Below are positions 6,701 through 33,237 of a stretch of DNA of 64,000 nucleotides, piece after piece (the first letter of the stretch is position 1; each line of letters starts with the position of its first letter). This stretch comes from a virus. Position numbers and translations under genes: made by a program. Location of the stretch: IMG/VR virus record IMGVR_UViG_3300024239_000016, positions 32,001-96,000 of that record; one strand, given 5' to 3'. The notes under the pieces are model-generated. The model made no database searches. It saw nothing but the letters and a program-made list of their open reading frames with translations, and was not told the origin of the DNA.

Positions 6701-8037
6701 TGGCTAAATCGCGGATTTATACCAAGAAAGATATGGGTATTATTTCCGAAGCTAACGTTGACTCAGGCGATGTGGGCGTTAACATCTGGACATCGGCTAA
6801 CCCAAACCTTACCACTATTTACGGTAACACAAAACAGCTGGATGGAGATTACGACCCCACTAAGTTGTTTAGCACAACTACTCTGCTAGCTCCATTCGCT
6901 GAGAATGAAGATATGAAGCGAGCAGTTTTTACGGGAATTCAAAACCAGCACACCGTAGCATGTCACGGGTATAAACCACCACAGGTTCGTACCGGCTATG
7001 AATATGTGATTCCTCATCGAGTCGGTGATCTTTTCTGTACTACAGCTAAACAAGCCGGTGTCGTTGAGTCAGTAACAGATGACGGGATTGTTGTTAAATA
7101 CGCAGACGGTACGGTAAAGGGAGTTCAGCTAGGTCGTGTTTACGGCATTAGTTGCGGTAGTGTCGTGTCTCATTCACTGGTTTCAGAAATGAAACCAGGT
7201 CAGAAGTTCAAAGAAGGGGACGTCATCGCTTACAATAGCAATTTCTTTGCCAAGGATTATTTCGATCCGACAAAAGTGATGTTGAAGTTTAACACCACTG
7301 CAAAGATTGCTCTGTATGAGGCAGCGCTGACAAATGACGATTCCTCAATGATCTCCGTTGAGCTATCTGAGCGTCTGCGTTGCGATACGCCGCACGATCG
7401 CATGGTTGTTGTTAGTTTCCAGGATCATCTATCGAAAGTAGTTGGTGTCGGTACTGAAGTTGAGCCCGATGACATTCTCTGTTACATTAGTCCGAGCGTA
7501 GCCAGCTCAGCGACTGGTATTACAGATCAAGTGGCACTGGATGCCCTTACTGAGTGGAGTAATCAAACACCAACCGCTAAGTACAAAGGACGTATTGAGT
7601 ACATCGAGTGTTTCTATCATGGCGACCTCGAAAACATGTCTGAAACTGTGCGGAAGTTAGCTGAAGCATCTGACCGTCAGCGTAAACAGAAGCAAAAGGC
7701 AGCCGCTATGCCTATCTACTCCAGTATGGTCGATGATTCGTTCCGCAAAGATGGCGAGGCTATCCCCGTGGATAGTATGGTCATCAAGTTTTATATCGCA
7801 AGTAGCGAGCCAGCGGCTGTAGCCGATAAAGTGGTGTATGGTAATCAGTTAAAATCAGTCATTGGTGAAGTGATCAGTGGTGAGATTGTAACTGAGTCTG
7901 GTGTGCAGATTGAGGCTGTCTTCGGCCAGGCATCTATTGATAATCGAATTATTGATAGCTTTCCGCGTATCGGTGCCCTTACTACGCTTCTGAAGCTTAT
8001 CGCTACAAAAACAGTTTCAGCTTACCGTAATCAATAA
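3742..8037 (+). CDS. Virion RNA polymerase beta subunit (phiKZ gp178-like)
   Basis: 1431 aa; TFSGTGGR, ISEANVDSGDVG, EDMKR, DDSS and GNQLKSV beta-type motifs; synteny. Confidence 0.9.
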   Translation: MRDYYQFFFRSVGAWKSELITNPQLHPFEGLQLPRNSAYHILPDGSDSPTPNPNDPILKGWSKPISLLNVHQLAVLDGEPRKLAYDVVSEFNKFLTANNMQFRRMKSLEQVVPDDQALVAISYMAIPRAYYYAQTNYSEWHSYYNLMKTVFQKVEELANNSSRHQFLVFDAPELVPSLELLKYAERSAELERKIVKDFNTPGRRLVLELFKWLGAGYNQNSLFSLISLANLSKVNLILRHKGNFILINLGLLFSWRSAPKTEKEVWEFFGKEAGRGQMPLQYQRWLIRFFAVISKLETPSVDVEKLDAELKAAGEEIIDDASSVPSIANKAGAVTQVNDDMDEEMDDGLLDDRPSTPAEKIDFAITEELEKELERELAVLSRKNDKYGEDEEDIPVTEVAEISDIDAPTIYNAVTRKCDYLADQGVLSAAEYKRHIRLSESFKKIKIDGKPVEDLIKRDPISVALAEPKLIPDAAGVKDKRMLKSSISELNEEYQKRGMLADTVSCIMAIQKAAISVTEIEKDRIDTIMGSSDVYSVRLVPVEGEPSTIKIRVSACNDDGSFVANGTKYRLRRQKADVPIRKISPNEVVLSSYYGPKQFITRGARKNNSYEIWLAAQIRAIGLDENNQTITDLHVGNDFDHDFRCNYTYSVLARNFAGFNLKGFECSFNHKLREERFGAEAIKLYEGDKKHGRLIFGKSKDDQYLIFGTDGLVYIGADKTSRLVGSFEDYVGIEEFSPVERADMRIIDKNIPLGVILSYEMGLETMLKALRVKYDKFEGNIRMMSKSNTHYVLRFKDCCLVIYRDRGRLDMIIGGLMEYDDFLKTRTLREFNKKDIYLPLLESRKLTLRYLTEIDNLYDLFIDPITELNLKRMNEPTTFRGLLLRAVELLLIDWHPTEMDTEYQQLKGNERMAGAIYRELVRSVRRHRSRSDRARAPIELKPHAVWKAIADDSAKLLMDEINPIAHLKEIEAVTFSGTGGRTAETMMAKSRIYTKKDMGIISEANVDSGDVGVNIWTSANPNLTTIYGNTKQLDGDYDPTKLFSTTTLLAPFAENEDMKRAVFTGIQNQHTVACHGYKPPQVRTGYEYVIPHRVGDLFCTTAKQAGVVESVTDDGIVVKYADGTVKGVQLGRVYGISCGSVVSHSLVSEMKPGQKFKEGDVIAYNSNFFAKDYFDPTKVMLKFNTTAKIALYEAALTNDDSSMISVELSERLRCDTPHDRMVVVSFQDHLSKVVGVGTEVEPDDILCYISPSVASSATGITDQVALDALTEWSNQTPTAKYKGRIEYIECFYHGDLENMSETVRKLAEASDRQRKQKQKAAAMPIYSSMVDDSFRKDGEAIPVDSMVIKFYIASSEPAAVADKVVYGNQLKSVIGEVISGEIVTESGVQIEAVFGQASIDNRIIDSFPRIGALTTLLKLIATKTVSAYRNQ

Positions 8038-27733: not shown

Positions 27734-27779
27734 TGATTTAATTCGCAGCACATTTATGTGATGTAAAGTAACAAACAAA

Positions 27780-28460
27780 GGGCACCTGCTAATAAACTAT
27801 CGGTAGTCAACGTGGCTGGCTATTAGAAATAATACCACGCTGCGATGGCGTAACGATAGAGTCGAAAGAAGCATAAAACATCTATTCATTTTGGCACGCG
27901 TAAAACCTTAAAAAGATAGATGGGTGAATCTGTTCAAAGTCGGCGAATGCTGCGTCCGTTAGGACACGCTAACGCCGAGCCAAAACAAGTTGTCCTATTC
28001 AGCCTAACCTACCTTTAGTCGGATGTACTTGACCGGTAGTATGGCGGGGATGTAAATGCTAGTTCAGGTAAAACACTACGGTGTAACTAGAATCTCGGGA
28101 GAGATCTAAAGACAGGCATTCTTGTGAGGTGTAGAGAGATGATGGACAGGACCTAAGTCTGCTGGCGATGATGTTTGTCGTTAAAACGAAGTTAACTCGA
28201 TAGTGATATGGATAAATTGCCTATCATGATGACCGTGTTAGCGTAAGGAAGCAGATATGGTAAAGGCGATCTCCGGACTACAACAATAGATGGACATGAC
28301 GCGTGCGTTGCGAGACAGCACAAATCACATACATCTCTGATCGTCGTAAGACGATGTAGTGAGTTTCCTTAAACTAAAAGTGCATCCCAGTGCTGGCCTT
28401 ATTAGCATTGCGTAGCCTGACAGCGTAACAGGTTAATTCTAGTTAAAGAAGAAAGTGCTC
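27780..28460 (+). ncRNA. Large structured RNA containing a group I ribozyme core (IC3/Azoarcus-like), copy A
   Basis: P3 CTGTTC 27930-35/GGACAG 28144-49; P4 TCGGCG 27940-45/CGCCGA 27973-78; P6 GCC/GGT; P7 G(A)GAGAT 28134-40/ATCTCC 28269-74; P8 ACC/GGT; P9 ACTACA 28277-82/TGTAGT 28355-60; no ORF. Confidence 0.85.
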
Positions 28461-28498
28461 ATGGATTAATACTAGGTAATCGCATCCATGACAGATGT

Positions 28499-28583
28499 GC
28501 CCAGGTGGCGAAATTGGTAGACGCACCAGATTTAGGTTCTGGCGCCTTCGGGTGTAGGGGTTCGATTCCCCTCTTGGGCACCA
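28499..28583 (+). tRNA. trnL: tRNA-Leu(TAG)
   Basis: Cloverleaf, anticodon arm CCAGA-TTTAGGT-TCTGG, long variable arm, encoded CCA. Confidence 0.95.
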
Positions 28584-28585
28584 AA

Positions 28586-28673
28586 GGAGATATGGCTGAG
28601 TGACTTAAGGTACTCCCCTGCTAAGGGAGCGTACAGAAATGTATCGTTGGCTCGAATCCAACTATCTCCGCCA
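28586..28673 (+). tRNA. trnS: tRNA-Ser(GCT)
   Basis: Anticodon arm CTCCC-CTGCTAA-GGGAG, long variable arm, G73, CCA; the T-loop starts with C. Confidence 0.92.
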
Positions 28674-28696
28674 AGAATTCAATAGTTGTTTTCATT

Positions 28697-29221
28697 GTGA
28701 GGGATCGAATGAAAAATCGTGTCAGTAAATACTTGACTAAGAAGTGCGCTCTGGAACTGCGTATCGTAATTGAGAATTTCAATTACGATAAAATCACCGA
28801 TGTTCAGCACATGACCGGTGTGACCGGTAGGCTTTGGCAAGCAGTTGGCTCGGAATTTGATGCACTCCAGTTAATTTTAATTGATTTTGAGCTGCTCCCA
28901 GATAACAAAACCGAAGCTACCTGCTATATTTTCGTGAGTATCGGCTACAATCCATCTGATGCTCTGCCCGCGTTACATCAGCTCCAGTTGTTTATTGACA
29001 AATACTCAGCGCGACTTGCCGATACAGACGTAACTCCCGCTAAGCTTCGTATGGATGGGGTATCAAAAGCATTTCGCTTACAAGCATCAAAGCGCGCCGA
29101 ATTTTTAGGTGATAAACTTGACGCCTCTATTTTCTTCAATCCTTTGCGTAAGAAAGTGTTGCGTGTCATTGCGGATGTGCACGAAAACTGCACAGGAACT
29201 CTGTGCATTGAGCTAAAGTAA
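28697..29221 (+). CDS. Hypothetical protein between tRNAs (start may be ATG 28709)
   Basis: 174 aa with protein-like composition. Confidence 0.7.
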   Translation: MRDRMKNRVSKYLTKKCALELRIVIENFNYDKITDVQHMTGVTGRLWQAVGSEFDALQLILIDFELLPDNKTEATCYIFVSIGYNPSDALPALHQLQLFIDKYSARLADTDVTPAKLRMDGVSKAFRLQASKRAEFLGDKLDASIFFNPLRKKVLRVIADVHENCTGTLCIELK

Positions 29222-29226
29222 AGACC

Positions 29227-29300
29227 GCCCCCGTAGCATGAAGGTCGTGCAGTTGATTTGTAATCATCAGGTGACAGTTCGATTCTGTCCGGGAGCACCA
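29227..29300 (+). tRNA. trnT: tRNA-Thr(TGT)
   Basis: Anticodon loop TTTGTAA, T-arm GACAG-TTCGATT-CTGTC, CCA; one mismatch each in the acceptor and anticodon stems. Confidence 0.88.
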
Positions 29301-29328
29301 ATTTAAAATTTCAATCAGGAGAATTACC

Positions 29329-29517
29329 ATGTGGCCAGATCCAGCATGGTACTTCGATGATTTAAGTATTTTCAAATACTGGGTAGATCAATTCTATTCG
29401 ATGGCTTGCAAACTCCGCTCCATCTTTAGCTGGCAGGCTGAAGAGGACCCATCCGTTACTGCCATGACGGAAGACGGTAGCAAGCTCGATTGGAAATTAC
29501 CGCCCCTTCGGGGGTAA
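29329..29517 (+). CDS. Possible small ORF (62 aa) embedded in structured RNA
   Basis: RBS AGGAG plus ATG, but enclosed by a 15/16-bp long-range helix. Confidence 0.4.
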   Translation: MWPDPAWYFDDLSIFKYWVDQFYSMACKLRSIFSWQAEEDPSVTAMTEDGSKLDWKLPPLRG

Positions 29518-29790
29518 TCATCAGAGTACCACACAAACCGGAACCAGTTCCTGTACCGGTAGCTTTAAGCTCAATAGCCTCGTAGGAGGGTGAGGGATAG
29601 TTAATGGGCGCTATATCGACTTTGTCGTGATACCCATGAAATCGGTTAGCAGAGCCGATGGGCGACTTCTGTTAGTATCAAGCGTTGAGGCTATGTTCAG
29701 GATTGTATTTGGGCATTCGACCATCTGTTTTAGATGTCTGGTTCGACTCCAGTAATGATACGATCTAGGGATCCCTTGGGTCCCTATTCT
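29330..29790 (+). ncRNA. Candidate structured RNA upstream of tRNA-Leu(TAA)
   Basis: Helices 29347-62/29516-31 and 29574-81/29687-94; T-arm-like CTGG-TTCGACT-CCAG at 29738-52. Confidence 0.5.
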
Positions 29791-29834
29791 AAAGTGATTT
29801 ATTTTACAATTATTTTAGAATAGTAAACTTTAAT

Positions 29835-29919
29835 CCGCGGGTGGCGAAATTGGTAGACGCATGAGACTTAAAATCTCACACCGAAAGGTATATGGGTTCG
29901 ACTCCCATACCGCGGACCA
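29835..29919 (+). tRNA. trnL: tRNA-Leu(TAA), intron-less
   Basis: Anticodon arm TGAGA-CTTAAAA-TCTCA, variable arm, T-arm, CCA. Confidence 0.93.
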
Positions 29920-29950
29920 TATCTTCTTAATCAACGAAAGAAAGAAAATT

Positions 29951-30298
29951 ATGTCACGTAAAGAACATAAAGGTCAAAAATTCGATCTTGCTTACGGCGT
30001 AGATCGCTATAGTGGGGCTTTCGTTCAGCTCTTCCAATCTCCGATGGACGATCAAGATGGCGCTTTCCTCAACGTGGATTCCCACGGAGTGCGTCTCGAT
30101 GAAGATCATCCCGAACTGCCCACTGAGCTCACCAAAGTGATCTCGGGGCTGAAATTGGCTTTCTGCCGTTATAAGGAAGCTCACAACGATAATCCGAATC
30201 TCTCGGTCGATCATGTGCTGCATGTTGCCCGCGCAGCTGATCAATTCGATACCTTCTCGGAAAAAGAAGTGTATCAGGTCTTTGGCGATAACGCTTGA
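29951..30298 (+). CDS. Hypothetical protein
   Basis: ATG 29951; the ORF-track start lies inside the tRNA. Confidence 0.75.
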   Translation: MSRKEHKGQKFDLAYGVDRYSGAFVQLFQSPMDDQDGAFLNVDSHGVRLDEDHPELPTELTKVISGLKLAFCRYKEAHNDNPNLSVDHVLHVARAADQFDTFSEKEVYQVFGDNA

Positions 30299-30309
30299 AA
30301 AAAAAAAAG

Positions 30310-30877
30310 CATGTGCTCGCTATTGTCTGAATAGTAAAGAAAGCACGGACTTACTGAGTCCGATAGTGAGGCAGTCCTGCATTGTCGTCAGATCAAGGCC
30401 TATTCATGATAGGTACAGTTTGACATCAGACTCTGGCAGTTAGGCTGATCAGAAGTGGAGCCGTGATAGTTCCGGATTTCGCAAAACCCTCAGATTACTT
30501 CTGTGGTCAGATGCGAGAGATGATGGAGTACCAGTGTCGAAGAGTGTGCGAGGGTGAACCTAGCGCTCTTAAACGGTCGACTAAATCAGAACTGATATTT
30601 GGCTATCGGCGATGAGGATTGGTTTAGAATCATGCCAATGTTCGAAATCCAAGTTCAAGGAGTTTATTGGGTAGTGATGAGAGAACTATCCTAGATACGT
30701 TTTCTCATCACTAGAACAGACGACATCCAGGCGAAACTGGGTTAAGTGAACTAGACCCACCAATCCATAGCACATAGGTGAATACGCACTCCCTTAGGTC
30801 TAGAGTGTCAGTAGTTCGCGCGGACTACCTCGACAGCATCGCCCTTGCAAAGCGGTGCTGTCCTGGAAGTGCGCATG
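30310..30877 (+). ncRNA. Large (about 570 nt) structured RNA directly upstream of tRNA-Pro
   Basis: Terminal helix CATGTGC 30310-16/GCGCATG 30871-77; 15-bp stem 30672-86/30699-713; stems 30616-23/30759-66 and 30832-42/30852-62; no credible ORF. Confidence 0.7.
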
Positions 30878-30884
30878 AAATTGT

Positions 30885-30961
30885 CCGTTCGTAGCGCAGC
30901 CTGGTAGCGCATCTGTTTTGGGAACAGAGGGTCGCAAGTTCGAATTTTGCCGGGCGGACCA
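30885..30961 (+). tRNA. trnP: tRNA-Pro(TGG)
   Basis: Anticodon arm TCTGT-TTTGGGA-ACAGA, C1-G72, A73, CCA. Confidence 0.95.
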
Positions 30962-30985
30962 TTCTTATTTTACCAAGAGGTAATC

Positions 30986-31228
30986 ATGCAATCAAACCAT
31001 AAAAAAGATGGCGTTGAAGCAATAAAAGAGCTGATCAAAGAAGTATGGAATACGCTCAAACGGCTTATCGAAGACTGTTTCATTAAACTGATGCAAAAGC
31101 ACATCAGGTGCTCTAGCAAAAAGAATTGGGTAGCGCGCAGCTCAAGTATTTTTTCTTTGGGCGACCGCAAATTACTTGGCATCAGGCGACATACCCCTGA
31201 TCGTTGGCTAGGTTATATTCGGAATTAG
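30986..31228 (+). CDS. Hypothetical protein
   Basis: RBS GAGGT, ATG 30986. Confidence 0.65.
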   Translation: MQSNHKKDGVEAIKELIKEVWNTLKRLIEDCFIKLMQKHIRCSSKKNWVARSSSIFSLGDRKLLGIRRHTPDRWLGYIRN

Positions 31229-31249
31229 TAACATTGGGAGCGGTGTAAC

Positions 31250-31675
31250 ATGAATCTTCATTTCACATCCCCTAGCGTTGGGAGCGATGTATGGATTGTC
31301 AAGGAGGATAAAATCCTTGGCACTGGCGCTGTAGTGGGATTTGATGGACAAGATCGACTGAGTGTGATGTTAAAAGACGCTGCAGCGAACGATCTACTTC
31401 CTCTGACTACCGATGACTTAAAAAGCATTGGTTATGGTTATTTATTTATCGGCTATGATGCGAATACGTGCGATTTACATCGTAATCAGGCAATAGTCGA
31501 TCTTATCAAAGATGACAGCCCTCTAATTGGCACTTCCATTGTTGATAAATTTAAACTCCGCTATGGTCTTGTTAACGACCGTTTCAAAAATGTCCCTGGT
31601 TATCGCGAAGCGTGCATCATGGAAGTCGGCCAGTCATTGACTGAACTACCCCAGAGGTCCTGTGATGGTGCGTAG
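31250..31675 (+). CDS. Hypothetical protein
   Basis: RBS GGAG, 141 aa. Confidence 0.75.
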   Translation: MNLHFTSPSVGSDVWIVKEDKILGTGAVVGFDGQDRLSVMLKDAAANDLLPLTTDDLKSIGYGYLFIGYDANTCDLHRNQAIVDLIKDDSPLIGTSIVDKFKLRYGLVNDRFKNVPGYREACIMEVGQSLTELPQRSCDGA

Positions 31676-32219
31676 AATATTTCAGAGCAGGGATTTACCG
31701 TGGCGTCAGCGTGTTACAATTGTTGTTGTCAACGATAACGGGAATGTCCTCATCGCTAATCAGCCCCCGTTACCGCCTTATAACGAAAAAATGCTGACCC
31801 TACCTGGAGGCGGCATTGAGCCAGGACAGACTCCAGAAGAGGCAGTAGCAGCTGAGCTTCTTGAAGAGGTTGGCGTCAAAGTAAGCGGCATTCAGGTACT
31901 TGACTGTCATACATTCGAAGAGCCGTTTACCGTGCTAAAGCCAGGAGAAGGTACCCCAGTTCAAATCGAGCGTCGCAAGTTGTTTAAAGGCGTACAATCT
32001 GTTGCTTATTTTGCCAAGTTCGAACGCACCATCAATGGTGGTAAAGGCACTGGCAATGATGCAATGGAATGGGAATGGTATCCGTTCCATAGGGCTACTG
32101 GAATAATGCTCGCTCAGCGTGCCCTGGCAATTAAAACTGGAAGAAATGGAAAGCTCCATATGTTCATGGCAGACGCGATCAGGGTCGCTAAAGACCATTT
32201 TTATAAAATAGAAAGCTAA
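31662..32219 (+). CDS. Nudix hydrolase with a divergent Nudix box
   Basis: LPGGGIEPGQTPEEAVAAELLEEVG. Confidence 0.85.
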   Translation: MMVRRIFQSRDLPWRQRVTIVVVNDNGNVLIANQPPLPPYNEKMLTLPGGGIEPGQTPEEAVAAELLEEVGVKVSGIQVLDCHTFEEPFTVLKPGEGTPVQIERRKLFKGVQSVAYFAKFERTINGGKGTGNDAMEWEWYPFHRATGIMLAQRALAIKTGRNGKLHMFMADAIRVAKDHFYKIES

Positions 32220-32249
32220 ACTGCTCGCTAGTATGAGCGGGTGAAGCTT

Positions 32250-33230
32250 CAATTAGGGCATTACCGAAAAATACGCTGGTAGTAGTGAAGAGATTCTTGT
32301 ATCGATGACAGATAGCTGTCGGTATTTCCGTGTCATGGCGGATAGATCAGCGAGTACTTTACACGGAACAGCGTAACCGAAAGGCGGTAAAACAACACCA
32401 TGAAAGCGGACATCCGCGCGCACATGTGTAGTACCGGTCATACAGACCGGAACGAGCTACTCTGACGCGATGGAAAAAATGGGCTGCCATAGTGGAGAAC
32501 TCTTAGTAGTGTTTAGGATAGCTGTGAGACAATGAAGCTCAGTCGCCAGGTTGAGTGGAGTCATCCTTGAAATAGCAGCCATAAACGGAGTTCAGTTGAA
32601 TGCAGTGTGATGAATCGTACGCCGCGTGGCCAGGCGATGAAATCACATTCCTCGGAAAGTCGGCGAATGTTTGATGTGTAAGGCCGTTGGGTCTCCGTGA
32701 GAGCGGAGACTGGAACAAGGTGAAACGGCGTTGAGTCGTCAGTGCTAAACTAACGAACAACGAGGCTGGGTCGAAAGATGCCGCTTACTGGATGTTCGAA
32801 TCGTCCCACAATACTAACGCCGAGCCAAGTCTGTGTGATCCGTAATGGGAAAATCGCCTCTGTAAAAAAGTCCAGTGTGCGAGGATGCTGTTGCGAACTA
32901 TCAGAAAGGTGTAGAGAGTAGACCCGAGGGACCTAAAACAATTTGTCGATAATAGCTATTGGATCACTTCATCGCGCGCCGCGGGGTGTTGGTCTAGTAA
33001 CAGGTAGCTTAGATGGGTTGTCATGGTAGAGGCGTATTCCAGACCACAAACAAAATCAGGGCTCCTAAAGAAAGAGTAACGCCTGTTTCTGGTAGTGAAA
33101 ACTATAGTGGTAGGCTTCCTAAGCCTGTATCTCCTGTTCTAGACATAGGGGATGGTTTCTTCAATAGAAGCAGTACCACGAGATAATATCGGTATTCTTA
33201 GATACTATCGTAAAACTCGTGCACAAAGAG
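32250..33230 (+). ncRNA. Very large structured RNA containing a group I ribozyme core (IC3/Azoarcus-like), copy C; ends approximate
   Basis: P3 CCTCGG 32650-55/CCGAGG 32924-29; P4 TCGGCG 32660-65/CGCCGA 32818-23; P6 GCC/GGT; P7 G(A)GAGTA 32914-20/TATTCC 33035-40; P8 ACC/GGT plus ACAATTT/GGGTTGT; P9 ACCAC 33043-47/GTGGT 33107-11; no ORF. Confidence 0.87.
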
Positions 33231-33237
33231 TTCAGTA

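Follow-up and report, generated by a model that had tools for sequence, protein, structure and literature searches.

To our knowledge, group I ribozymes are found in nature almost only as introns, with the lariat-capping ribozyme as one established exception whose job has changed. Here we analyse two large elements, copy A (wA) and copy B (wB), that carry group I ribozyme cores and lie in the tRNA cluster of a large phage, in a 64-kb window comprising bases 32001-96000 of the 194-kb IMG/VR virus record IMGVR_UViG_3300024239_000016, which is estimated to be 73% complete. All coordinates without a locus name are those of this window, the whole stretch of DNA analysed, and of its + strand; L-numbers denote related loci on phage or metagenome contigs. 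Among described ribozymes, those of the Tetrahymena L-21 ScaI type are exon-less, bind a short substrate through their guide sequence and use guanosine to cleave it after a wobble U. That reaction is engineered and proceeds in trans, whereas the putative substrate of wA and wB is natural, in cis and presented on a hairpin. In the 5' untranslated region of Clostridioides difficile, a group I ribozyme is controlled by a cyclic di-GMP-II riboswitch, and the choice of attack site for guanosine triphosphate (GTP) sets the 5' end of the downstream RNA. This ribozyme also sits in a non-coding leader, but with true exons and an aptamer, neither of which is seen for wA or wB; an Rfam search of the region gave no riboswitch match, and no aptamer was seen. 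The lariat-capping ribozyme GIR1 is derived from group I, no longer splices, acts at its own 3' end, and releases the downstream RNA and marks its 5' end (PMC2219692). The same logic underlies the reaction proposed below for wA and wB, although the sequences are related in nothing but the group I fold. In GIR1 the core is remodelled, P1 and P2 are missing, and a 2'-OH forms a lariat of three nucleotides (nt), whereas wA and wB keep a standard core, a guide and a U.G site, so the expected chemistry would be ordinary guanosine attack.

The closest described systems are the IC3 introns of tRNA genes, exemplified by Azoarcus tRNA-Ile(CAU), cyanobacterial tRNA-Leu(UAA) and Agrobacterium tRNA-Arg(CCU), with which wA and wB share core blocks and helices. 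Group I introns of tRNAs and their U-1 and terminal-G rules have been summarised (bioRxiv 10.1101/2020.01.27.920355), and structures of Azoarcus pre-tRNA are available (PMC13168695). Like these introns, wA and wB have a very short guide pairing with nucleotides of anticodon-loop type, a GAAA tetraloop with an 11-nt receptor, and no open reading frame (ORF) of their own. Unlike them, they have no tRNA exons, their apparent P1 strand is tethered on the 3' side, and the terminal G is not fixed. They are also three to four times longer (~600 nt for wA and ~885 nt for wB, against 205 nt for an IC3 tRNA intron) because of insertions in P2, P5, P6, P8 and P9. What is new here is the apparent relocation of the P1 substrate strand to the 3' tail of the ribozyme; the core itself is of a known group I type. 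Full-text literature searches turned up no description of group I ribozymes without exons in the tRNA clusters of phages, of a P1 substrate tethered at the 3' end, or of introns containing L1-stalk modules.

A sequence-only reading of the window had proposed that two intergenic segments share an ordered series of group I blocks, and all of these blocks are indeed found in both copies: P3-J3/4-P4 (wA 27929-27945, wB 32648-32665), P4'-P6 (CGCCGAGCCAA; wA 27973-27983, wB 32818-32828), J6/7-P7-P3'-P8 (GGTGTAGAGAG...GACCTAA; wA 28128-28156, wB 32908-32936) and J8/7-P7'-P9 (ATGGTARAGGCG...CCRGACYACAA; wA 28257-28284, wB 33023-33049). Both copies hence hold the conserved core, with the P3-P8 pseudoknot, P4-P6, P7 with J6/7, and J8/7. 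The compensatory changes reported by the same reading are likewise real, the helices pairing in both copies with different sequences: P3 is TCTGTTC/GGACAGG (7 base pairs, bp) in wA and TTCCTCGG/CCGAGGGA in wB, P7 is GAGAT/ATCTC and GAGTA/TATTC, and P9 is CTACA/TGTAG and CCAC/GTGG, respectively. The two copies are ~68% identical when MAFFT-aligned columns only are counted, and P3 takes 37 distinct strand sequences across 49 elements, with helices mostly of 5-8 bp. An nhmmer profile built solely from 136 compact introns that demonstrably split tRNA genes matched the 64-kb window, at E<0.1, at wA and wB only and in collinear order (E-values of 2.3e-10, 3.8e-4 and 0.045 for wA, and of 1.5e-7 and 1.5e-11 for wB), which is far beyond chance. 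The suggested kinship to the Azoarcus-type intron core also held against genomic sequences: a 31-mer probe was present in 29 genomes of betaproteobacteria, where it falls in tRNA(CAU) genes interrupted by ~205-nt introns, and the wA blocks align collinearly with one of these introns at 70-89% identity. On sequence grounds, then, wA and wB are confirmed as intact IC3-type group I ribozyme cores; their IC3-like placement is made by kinship, the 3-bp P1 and the GAAA loop with 11-nt receptor rather than by subgroup models. Their nearest relatives split tRNA-Leu, tRNA-Arg and tRNA(CAU) genes, and the comparison points clearly to descent of both elements from introns that split tRNA genes in phages and bacteria.

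A group I covariance-model search, which the sequence-only reading had offered as a way of refuting it, formally gave the refuting outcome, as Rfam RF00028 matched neither the region nor the whole 194-kb record even at E<=10. This is not a valid refutation here, because at its gathering threshold RF00028 also misses all 12 first-found relatives, several of which demonstrably split tRNA genes. Among the relatives, only the compact element L018 passes (50.7 bits). Since the 12 first-found relatives are missed and a compact one is found, the silence of the model on wA and wB most likely reflects their large insertions of 100-380 nt.

Relatives were collected by sequence-pattern scans, which yielded first 12 phage loci and later more than 100, together with 119 metagenome loci. 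Intron-aware ARAGORN found no split tRNA at wA or wB while recovering the positive controls; it placed split tRNAs, the majority tRNA-Leu(UAA/CAA) and tRNA-Arg(UCU), around 106 of the 144 phage relatives and around 86 of the 119 elements from metagenomes. As had been noted from the sequence, the flanking genes are intact, with upstream ORFs that stop before the elements and complete downstream tRNAs that begin 123 nt (wA) and 110 nt (wB) after them. The description of the elements as ORF-less also stands: the internal ORFs encode 43-73 amino acids (aa), and the three covered by the Pfam scan (57-73 aa, in wB) have no match; the sole ORF inside wA encodes 43 aa. Altogether ten elements are "free" in this sense (wA, wB, L007, L009, L012, L014, L020, L029, L035 and L037). 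Downstream of the eight besides wA and wB lies a tRNA in two cases and a coding sequence (CDS) in five, while the L020 locus ends before any downstream gene; the translations of the downstream genes look unrelated when compared by eye. The wA and wB regions had no blastn match among 50,697 phage records, and a search of viral contigs for syntenic relatives or possible intron-less alleles through the Nudix protein upstream of wB found none. Two further pattern scans for more members of the ornate subfamily returned mostly chance matches or already known loci, and the metagenome pattern scan returned ordinary bacterial tRNA-Leu introns and no additional free elements.

The evidence that sets the free elements apart lies in their 3' tails. 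At junctions fixed by a tRNA, guide positions -1 to -3 pair with the final three nucleotides of the exon, the pair at -3 being U.G, and the 3' exon continues the pairing from guide -4; this register was read by eye in L005, L006, L011, L026, L233a and L040, and L008, L028 and L034 have a matching upstream site. Across the family the guide lies directly 5' of a long-range P2 helix, whose 3' strand comes just before J2/3 and P3. The guide is thereby placed at 27777-27782 in wA (AAAGGG, positions -6 to -1) and at 32253-32258 in wB (TTAGGG). In all ten free elements, an NNU triplet stands exactly 6 nt after the 3' strand of P9 and is complementary to guide -1 to -3, with the U.G wobble at -3 in every case. 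For wA and wB the triplet is CCU (28367-69 and 33118-20), facing GGG in the guide, which places a P1 strand 3' of the ribozyme; in wA the guide pairs with CCUU at 28367-28370. The guide and triplet covary through three types (GGG/CCU, GCC/GGU and GGU/ACU), no guide pairs with the triplet of another type (0/62), and a complementary NNU at offset 6 is absent from all ten controls in tRNA or stem-loop-only settings; one of them, L026, pairs at all three positions, but its third nucleotide is C and not U. Furthermore, the loop follows a consensus U-NNU-W-A, with U before the triplet and A two positions after it in 10/10 free elements, and nine of the ten tails fold as hairpins whose stems differ between elements. 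The signals of ordinary splicing are weaker: a G at linker position 3 is found in 10/10 controls vs 4/10 free elements (L035 has none; G is present at 28363 in wA and at 33113/33114 in wB), and a fully Watson-Crick upstream NNU with an L1 loop of 6-25 nt in 9/9 controls vs 3/10 free elements. We estimate the latter fraction to be about what chance would give; wA, L009, L020 and L037 have no upstream complement, which suggests that most free elements lack a conserved 5' splice site. The analysis thus establishes family membership, the lack of a host gene, a covarying tethered substrate, a relaxed terminal G and no enrichment of upstream sites.

We favour the reading that wA and wB are ribozymes derived from tRNA introns with their substrate tethered in cis, and put its probability at roughly 0.45. 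The P1 strand would be supplied not by an upstream exon but by the ribozyme's own 3' tail, in the hairpin 6 nt after P9. The loop of this hairpin resembles a spliced anticodon loop, so that the tail would mimic ligated exons (P1 plus one or two P10 pairs) and the RNA would fold into a closed complex resembling the post-ligation state. Free guanosine would then attack after U28369 in wA (U28369|U28370) and after U33120 in wB (U33120|A33121), which would be the classical endonuclease reaction of group I ribozymes without exons, carried out in cis. The ribozyme would thereby be cut from the downstream tRNA precursor, or from an mRNA in other phages, and that RNA would gain a 5' G. The ribozyme would thus probably cleave itself at the loop U using guanosine, and real chemistry is favoured because a closing or blocking role would need only a Watson-Crick pair at -3, whereas U.G marks a reactive site. 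The earlier suggestion of a domesticated stand-alone ribozyme is compatible with these data and is made more specific by the conserved cis substrate hairpin. More tentatively, and with the balance of probability somewhat against it in this full form, the free elements may represent a natural "substrate-tethered" class that has given up ligation and whose only substrate is an anticodon-loop mimic in cis, 6 nt from P9. Such ribozymes would either release and 5'-G-tag downstream tRNAs or mRNAs by GTP-dependent self-cleavage or hold the mimic as a pseudo-substrate to be displaced by a real tRNA, some members adding an L1-stalk-like module for tRNA elbows.

Several points weigh against the tethered-substrate reading. 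If the hairpin were just a pseudo-substrate, blocking or stabilising the ribozyme, nearly the same sequences would be expected; chemistry at the loop site is indicated only by the invariant U.G wobble. A stable product-like complex, or a pseudo-substrate displaced by real tRNA, would also fit most of the data. Full pairing of a 4-nt loop with the guide requires the stem to open in part. A 3' splice site may still be in use, since an AG lies within 2-5 nt after P9 in nine of the ten free elements, and in wB the upstream P1 (GCUU|) is respectable and can be extended to 9 bp, so this element could simply splice; conventional splicing from the upstream site is possible for wB. The sample of free elements is small (n=10), with L009 and L012 being close relatives, and an approximately unbiased (AU) test does not reject a single origin of the free class (p 0.30).

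The alternative that survives best, although we consider it rather unlikely, is that the free elements are ordinary selfish self-splicing introns in non-coding spacer, which use an upstream site and the terminal G, ligate their exons, and carry the hairpin as the start of a 3' exon that aids P10 formation or folding. The upstream GCUU| of wB that pairs with the guide and the AG retained shortly after P9 in 9/10 free elements speak for it, as does the existence of conventional family members in bare stem-loops (L040 and the second element of L233, described below), which shows that non-tRNA hosts exist. It would nonetheless have to accommodate upstream complements at chance level and a terminal G whose position is not conserved, as well as a 3-bp P1 from which an untethered exon would be lost after the first step. 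Moreover, it leaves NNU with U.G at exactly +6 unexplained in 10/10 elements, as P10 would use guide positions -4 and beyond and not -1 to -3.

Also considered was an intron at the very end of a CDS, with the stop codon just after the terminal G or split as U|AG; this idea was dropped because the reading frames are inconsistent in L009, L012, L035 and wA. Pairing of exon to exon across the intron works for wB and L014 only.

It is improbable, in our estimate, that these are trans-acting ribozymes aimed at tRNA anticodon loops, that of tRNA-Arg(CCU) for wA and wB, with the cis hairpin as a displaceable pseudo-substrate, the L1-like module of wB docking the tRNA elbow, and cleavage or reverse splicing as the outcome. 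The loop consensus U-NNU-W-A does resemble anticodon-loop positions 33-38, and when T33111 is included the wB hairpin can be drawn as a perfect 5-bp stem with the 7-nt loop UUCCUAA, the form of a tRNA-Arg(CCU) anticodon arm, with 6 nt of which the wB guide can pair. Most loops, however, have 4-6 nt rather than 7, position 37 is U in 7/10 elements, which is unusual for tRNAs, and no benefit to the phage is evident. The L1-like module, which would speak for action on a tRNA because L1-stalk heads dock tRNA elbows (PMC3664808) and because the same module occurs in a true tRNA-Leu intron with its tRNA in cis, was found only in wB when the free elements were scanned with a sequence motif.

This module is a 72-nt segment in the P2 extension of wB (32510-32581) that resembles the L1 stalk of 23S rRNA, the helices around H77-H78. 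It was found as a local match to RF02541 at 50.4 bits (gathering score 50; E 4.6e-13; model positions 2135-2206) and keeps the conserved loop sequences of the L1 stalk. It lies inside the P2 domain and is not a fragment of an rRNA gene; blastn against E. coli genomes gave no match. A homologous module in the metagenome locus L233 (12689-12760) is 83% identical, has compensatory changes in the terminal hairpin and sits in P6 of a genuine tRNA-Leu intron; Rfam does not report it at E<=1. The module therefore occupies two different peripheral positions in related ribozymes and, by homology, is a peripheral add-on common to wB and a true tRNA-Leu intron. Elbow-docking modules of tRNA are known from the ribosomal L1 stalk, the apex of T-box Stem I and RNase P (PMC3664808, PMC4810234); that of wB or L233 differs in sitting in P2 or P6 of a ribozyme and not in rRNA. 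By analogy with these, the wB module plausibly docks a tRNA elbow or the ribosomal protein uL1, and a tRNA intron would have use for an elbow-docking module, the tRNA body being in cis.

Decay is a still poorer explanation. That wA and wB are decaying remains of tRNA genes with introns, such as one for tRNA-Arg(CCU), and no longer have a function seems very improbable despite their clear ancestry from tRNA introns and despite hairpins that keep an ancestral tRNA junction (ACU|UAA in L009 and L012 is the junction of L006 and L008). Core helices, P8 receptor, guide and hairpin are all intact in two copies as different as wA and wB. The close pair L009 and L012 differ in their peripheral loops and flanks but retain core and hairpin, with similarity running to just past the hairpin, a pattern that is a sign of selection on core and hairpin. 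Decay would also be expected to leave the anticodon stem split, one half on each side of the intron, whereas the ten free elements have a complete hairpin at the same 6-nt offset. Hardly credible, finally, is the earlier proposal of introns inside a larger, still unrecognised structured non-coding RNA gene: the wB 3' flank folds better than shuffles (z -2.7) and the surrounding 10 kb hold several long non-coding stretches, but the wA flanks fold no better than shuffles, blastn against 3.3 Mb of fetched loci found no relatives of the flanks of either copy, exon sequence is not shared between related free elements, whose flanks are mutually unrelated and whose homology stops right after the 3' hairpin, and in other phages the same kind of element directly precedes a CDS or tRNA.

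When 132 core columns are used to build a tree, the free elements fall in scattered positions among the tRNA introns (7 changes for 8 rows); the alignment is too short to reject a single origin, and nearest-neighbour identities gave no decision either.

Ribozyme A, delimited through nhmmer, its helices and family comparison, runs from the guide to the end of the 3' hairpin (27777-28375). Its guide, placed by the register of the tRNA-fixed relatives, directly precedes the P2 domain (27783-27926), which is closed by the long-range helix CACC (27783-86)/GGTG (27923-26) and contains a conserved 5' module (to 27812), the hairpin GGCGTAAC...CGAAAG...ATAAAAC (27847-27879) and the P2.1 stem CATCTAT/ATAGATG. 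The segment 27929-27983 (nhmmer E 2.3e-10) holds the 5' strand of P3 (27929-35), J3/4 (AAA), P4 (27939-45), a short P5 hairpin, P4' (CGCCGAG, 27973-79) and the start of P6. It is followed at 28128-28157 by J6/7, the 5' strand of P7 (GAGAT, 28136-40), the 3' strand of P3 (GGACAGG, 28144-50) and the CCTAAG receptor half of P8 (28152-57). By direct reading, P8 has the canonical 11-nt tetraloop receptor, CCUAAG...UAUGG, its second half at 28256-60; the receptor of wB is a variant. The segment 28257-28360 comprises J8/7 (ATGGTAAAGGCG), the 3' strand of P7 (ATCTC, 28269-73) and P9 (ACTACA, 28277-82, with TGTAGT, 28355-60) with an inserted hairpin. The tail (28361-28375), assigned by offset, complementarity and fold, consists of the 6-nt linker GAGTTT with the candidate terminal G at 28363, the loop CCT|T and the 3' stem AAACT.

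Ribozyme B, delimited in the same way, spans 32243-33127 when a possible upstream P1 partner is included. This conventional P1 (32243-32258), taken from the minimum-free-energy (MFE) fold, has the strand GAAGCTT| with a candidate 5' splice site after T32249 and a 6-nt loop; the MFE fold pairs GCUU with GGGC and GGUGA with UUACC, and the 5' fold has z = -3.4. Its guide, fixed by the family register, is followed by the P2 domain (32259-32639), with the helix CATT (32259-62)/GATG (32636-39), the 5' module, the hairpin AGCGTAACCGAAAGGCGGTAAAAC (32360-83) and a long extension; the GAAA hairpin has a blastn match to L011 and L386. Next come the 5' strand of P3, J3/4, P4, a 146-nt insertion in P5, P4' (CGCCGAG, 32818-24) and the start of P6 (together 32648-32828). 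The segment 32908-32937 (nhmmer E 1.5e-7) carries J6/7, the 5' strand of P7 (GAGTA, 32916-20), the 3' strand of P3 (32924-31) and the beginning of P8 (CCTAAA). At 33023-33111 (nhmmer E 1.5e-11) lie J8/7 (ATGGTAGAGGCG), the 3' strand of P7 (TATTC, 33035-39) and P9 (ACCAC, 33043-47, with GTGGT, 33107-11) with a GTGAAAAC tetraloop arm. The tail (33112-33127), assigned as in wA, has the 6-nt linker AGGCTT, with the candidate terminal G at 33113 or 33114, and the loop CCT|A. Across this end, the 3' flank of wB (33106-33237) has a predicted stem GUGGU/ACCAC around three hairpins (z -2.7 against shuffles); GUGGU is also the 3' strand of P9, and the two pairings therefore compete.

The 5' starts, at ~27777 for wA and 32253 for wB, are well upstream of their earlier placement, and the 3' ends are the hairpins at 28362-28375 and 33112-33127. 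By direct reading, which involves no formal covariation test, the P2 helix covaries, with CACC/GGUG in wA, CAUU/GAUG in wB and CUAGCG/CGCUAG, CAUAC/GUAUG and CACAC/GUGUG in relatives. The P2 domain holds a conserved CGAAAAAUG...GGUAGUC module and a GAAA-capped hairpin.

Six tRNA genes, all on the + strand, lie in the surrounding region (27.3-33.7 kb), among short ORFs and several long stretches in which no credible ORF is seen; the neighbours of the ribozymes include genes for a Nudix hydrolase and a GNAT acetyltransferase (Pfam). Two of the long stretches, 30300-30884 and 29520-29834, lie directly 5' of tRNA-Pro and tRNA-Leu(UAA), and have no Rfam match, no match to the group I profile and no relatives among the fetched loci. 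The other non-coding stretches of this island and the peripheral insertions of the ribozymes likewise had no blastn relatives among these loci except for the L1-like module and the P2 GAAA hairpin.

The relatives themselves hold several unusual arrangements. In L040 (minus strand), one of the conventional members of the family, the two exons pair into an 11-bp hairpin and the intron lies in its loop (ACAU|AAAA), the host being a stem-loop and neither a tRNA nor a CDS. L233:12190-13510 has two related introns in tandem. The first, with the L1-stalk-like module in its P6, interrupts a full tRNA-Leu(UAA); the host of the second is only a stem like that of an anticodon arm (AGGGA...UCCCU), in whose loop the intron lies and around which no other part of a tRNA is present. 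In L011, the P5 loop of an intron that splits tRNA-Arg(UCU) contains a complete tRNA-like gene (6921-6987; RF00005, 34.3 bits), and the P2 extension of the tRNA-Leu intron of L008 (minus strand) contains an insert with tRNA-like ends, GGGATGGCGGAACGGTAGACGC ... GTTCGACTCTTACTCCCT, which neither ARAGORN nor Rfam calls. At L005:12137-12508, a permuted transfer-messenger RNA (tmRNA) gene (RF04321, 83.5 bits) in a phage tRNA cluster adjoins an ornate tRNA-Leu intron. The same intron family also interrupts protein-coding phage genes (L068, L081, L121, L082, L093, L140, L150, L052, L077 and L124), and at some of these loci a long ORF on the reverse strand seems, by eye, to lie just 5' of the intron.

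Because RF00028 fails to detect any of this ornate phage lineage, tRNAs split by introns and free ribozymes have likely gone unannotated in the genomes of large phages. If the L1-stalk-like module binds tRNA, it would represent a fourth context for the elbow-docking motif, after the ribosome, RNase P and T-boxes. Group I constructs engineered to cleave in cis or in trans would have a natural counterpart in this architecture, which may inform their design. If the tethered-substrate reading is true, wA, wB and their free relatives would be a second natural lineage of group I ribozymes outside any gene, one in which the substrate has moved to the ribozyme's own 3' end, and would mark another route from selfish intron to an RNA-processing or tRNA-directed device.

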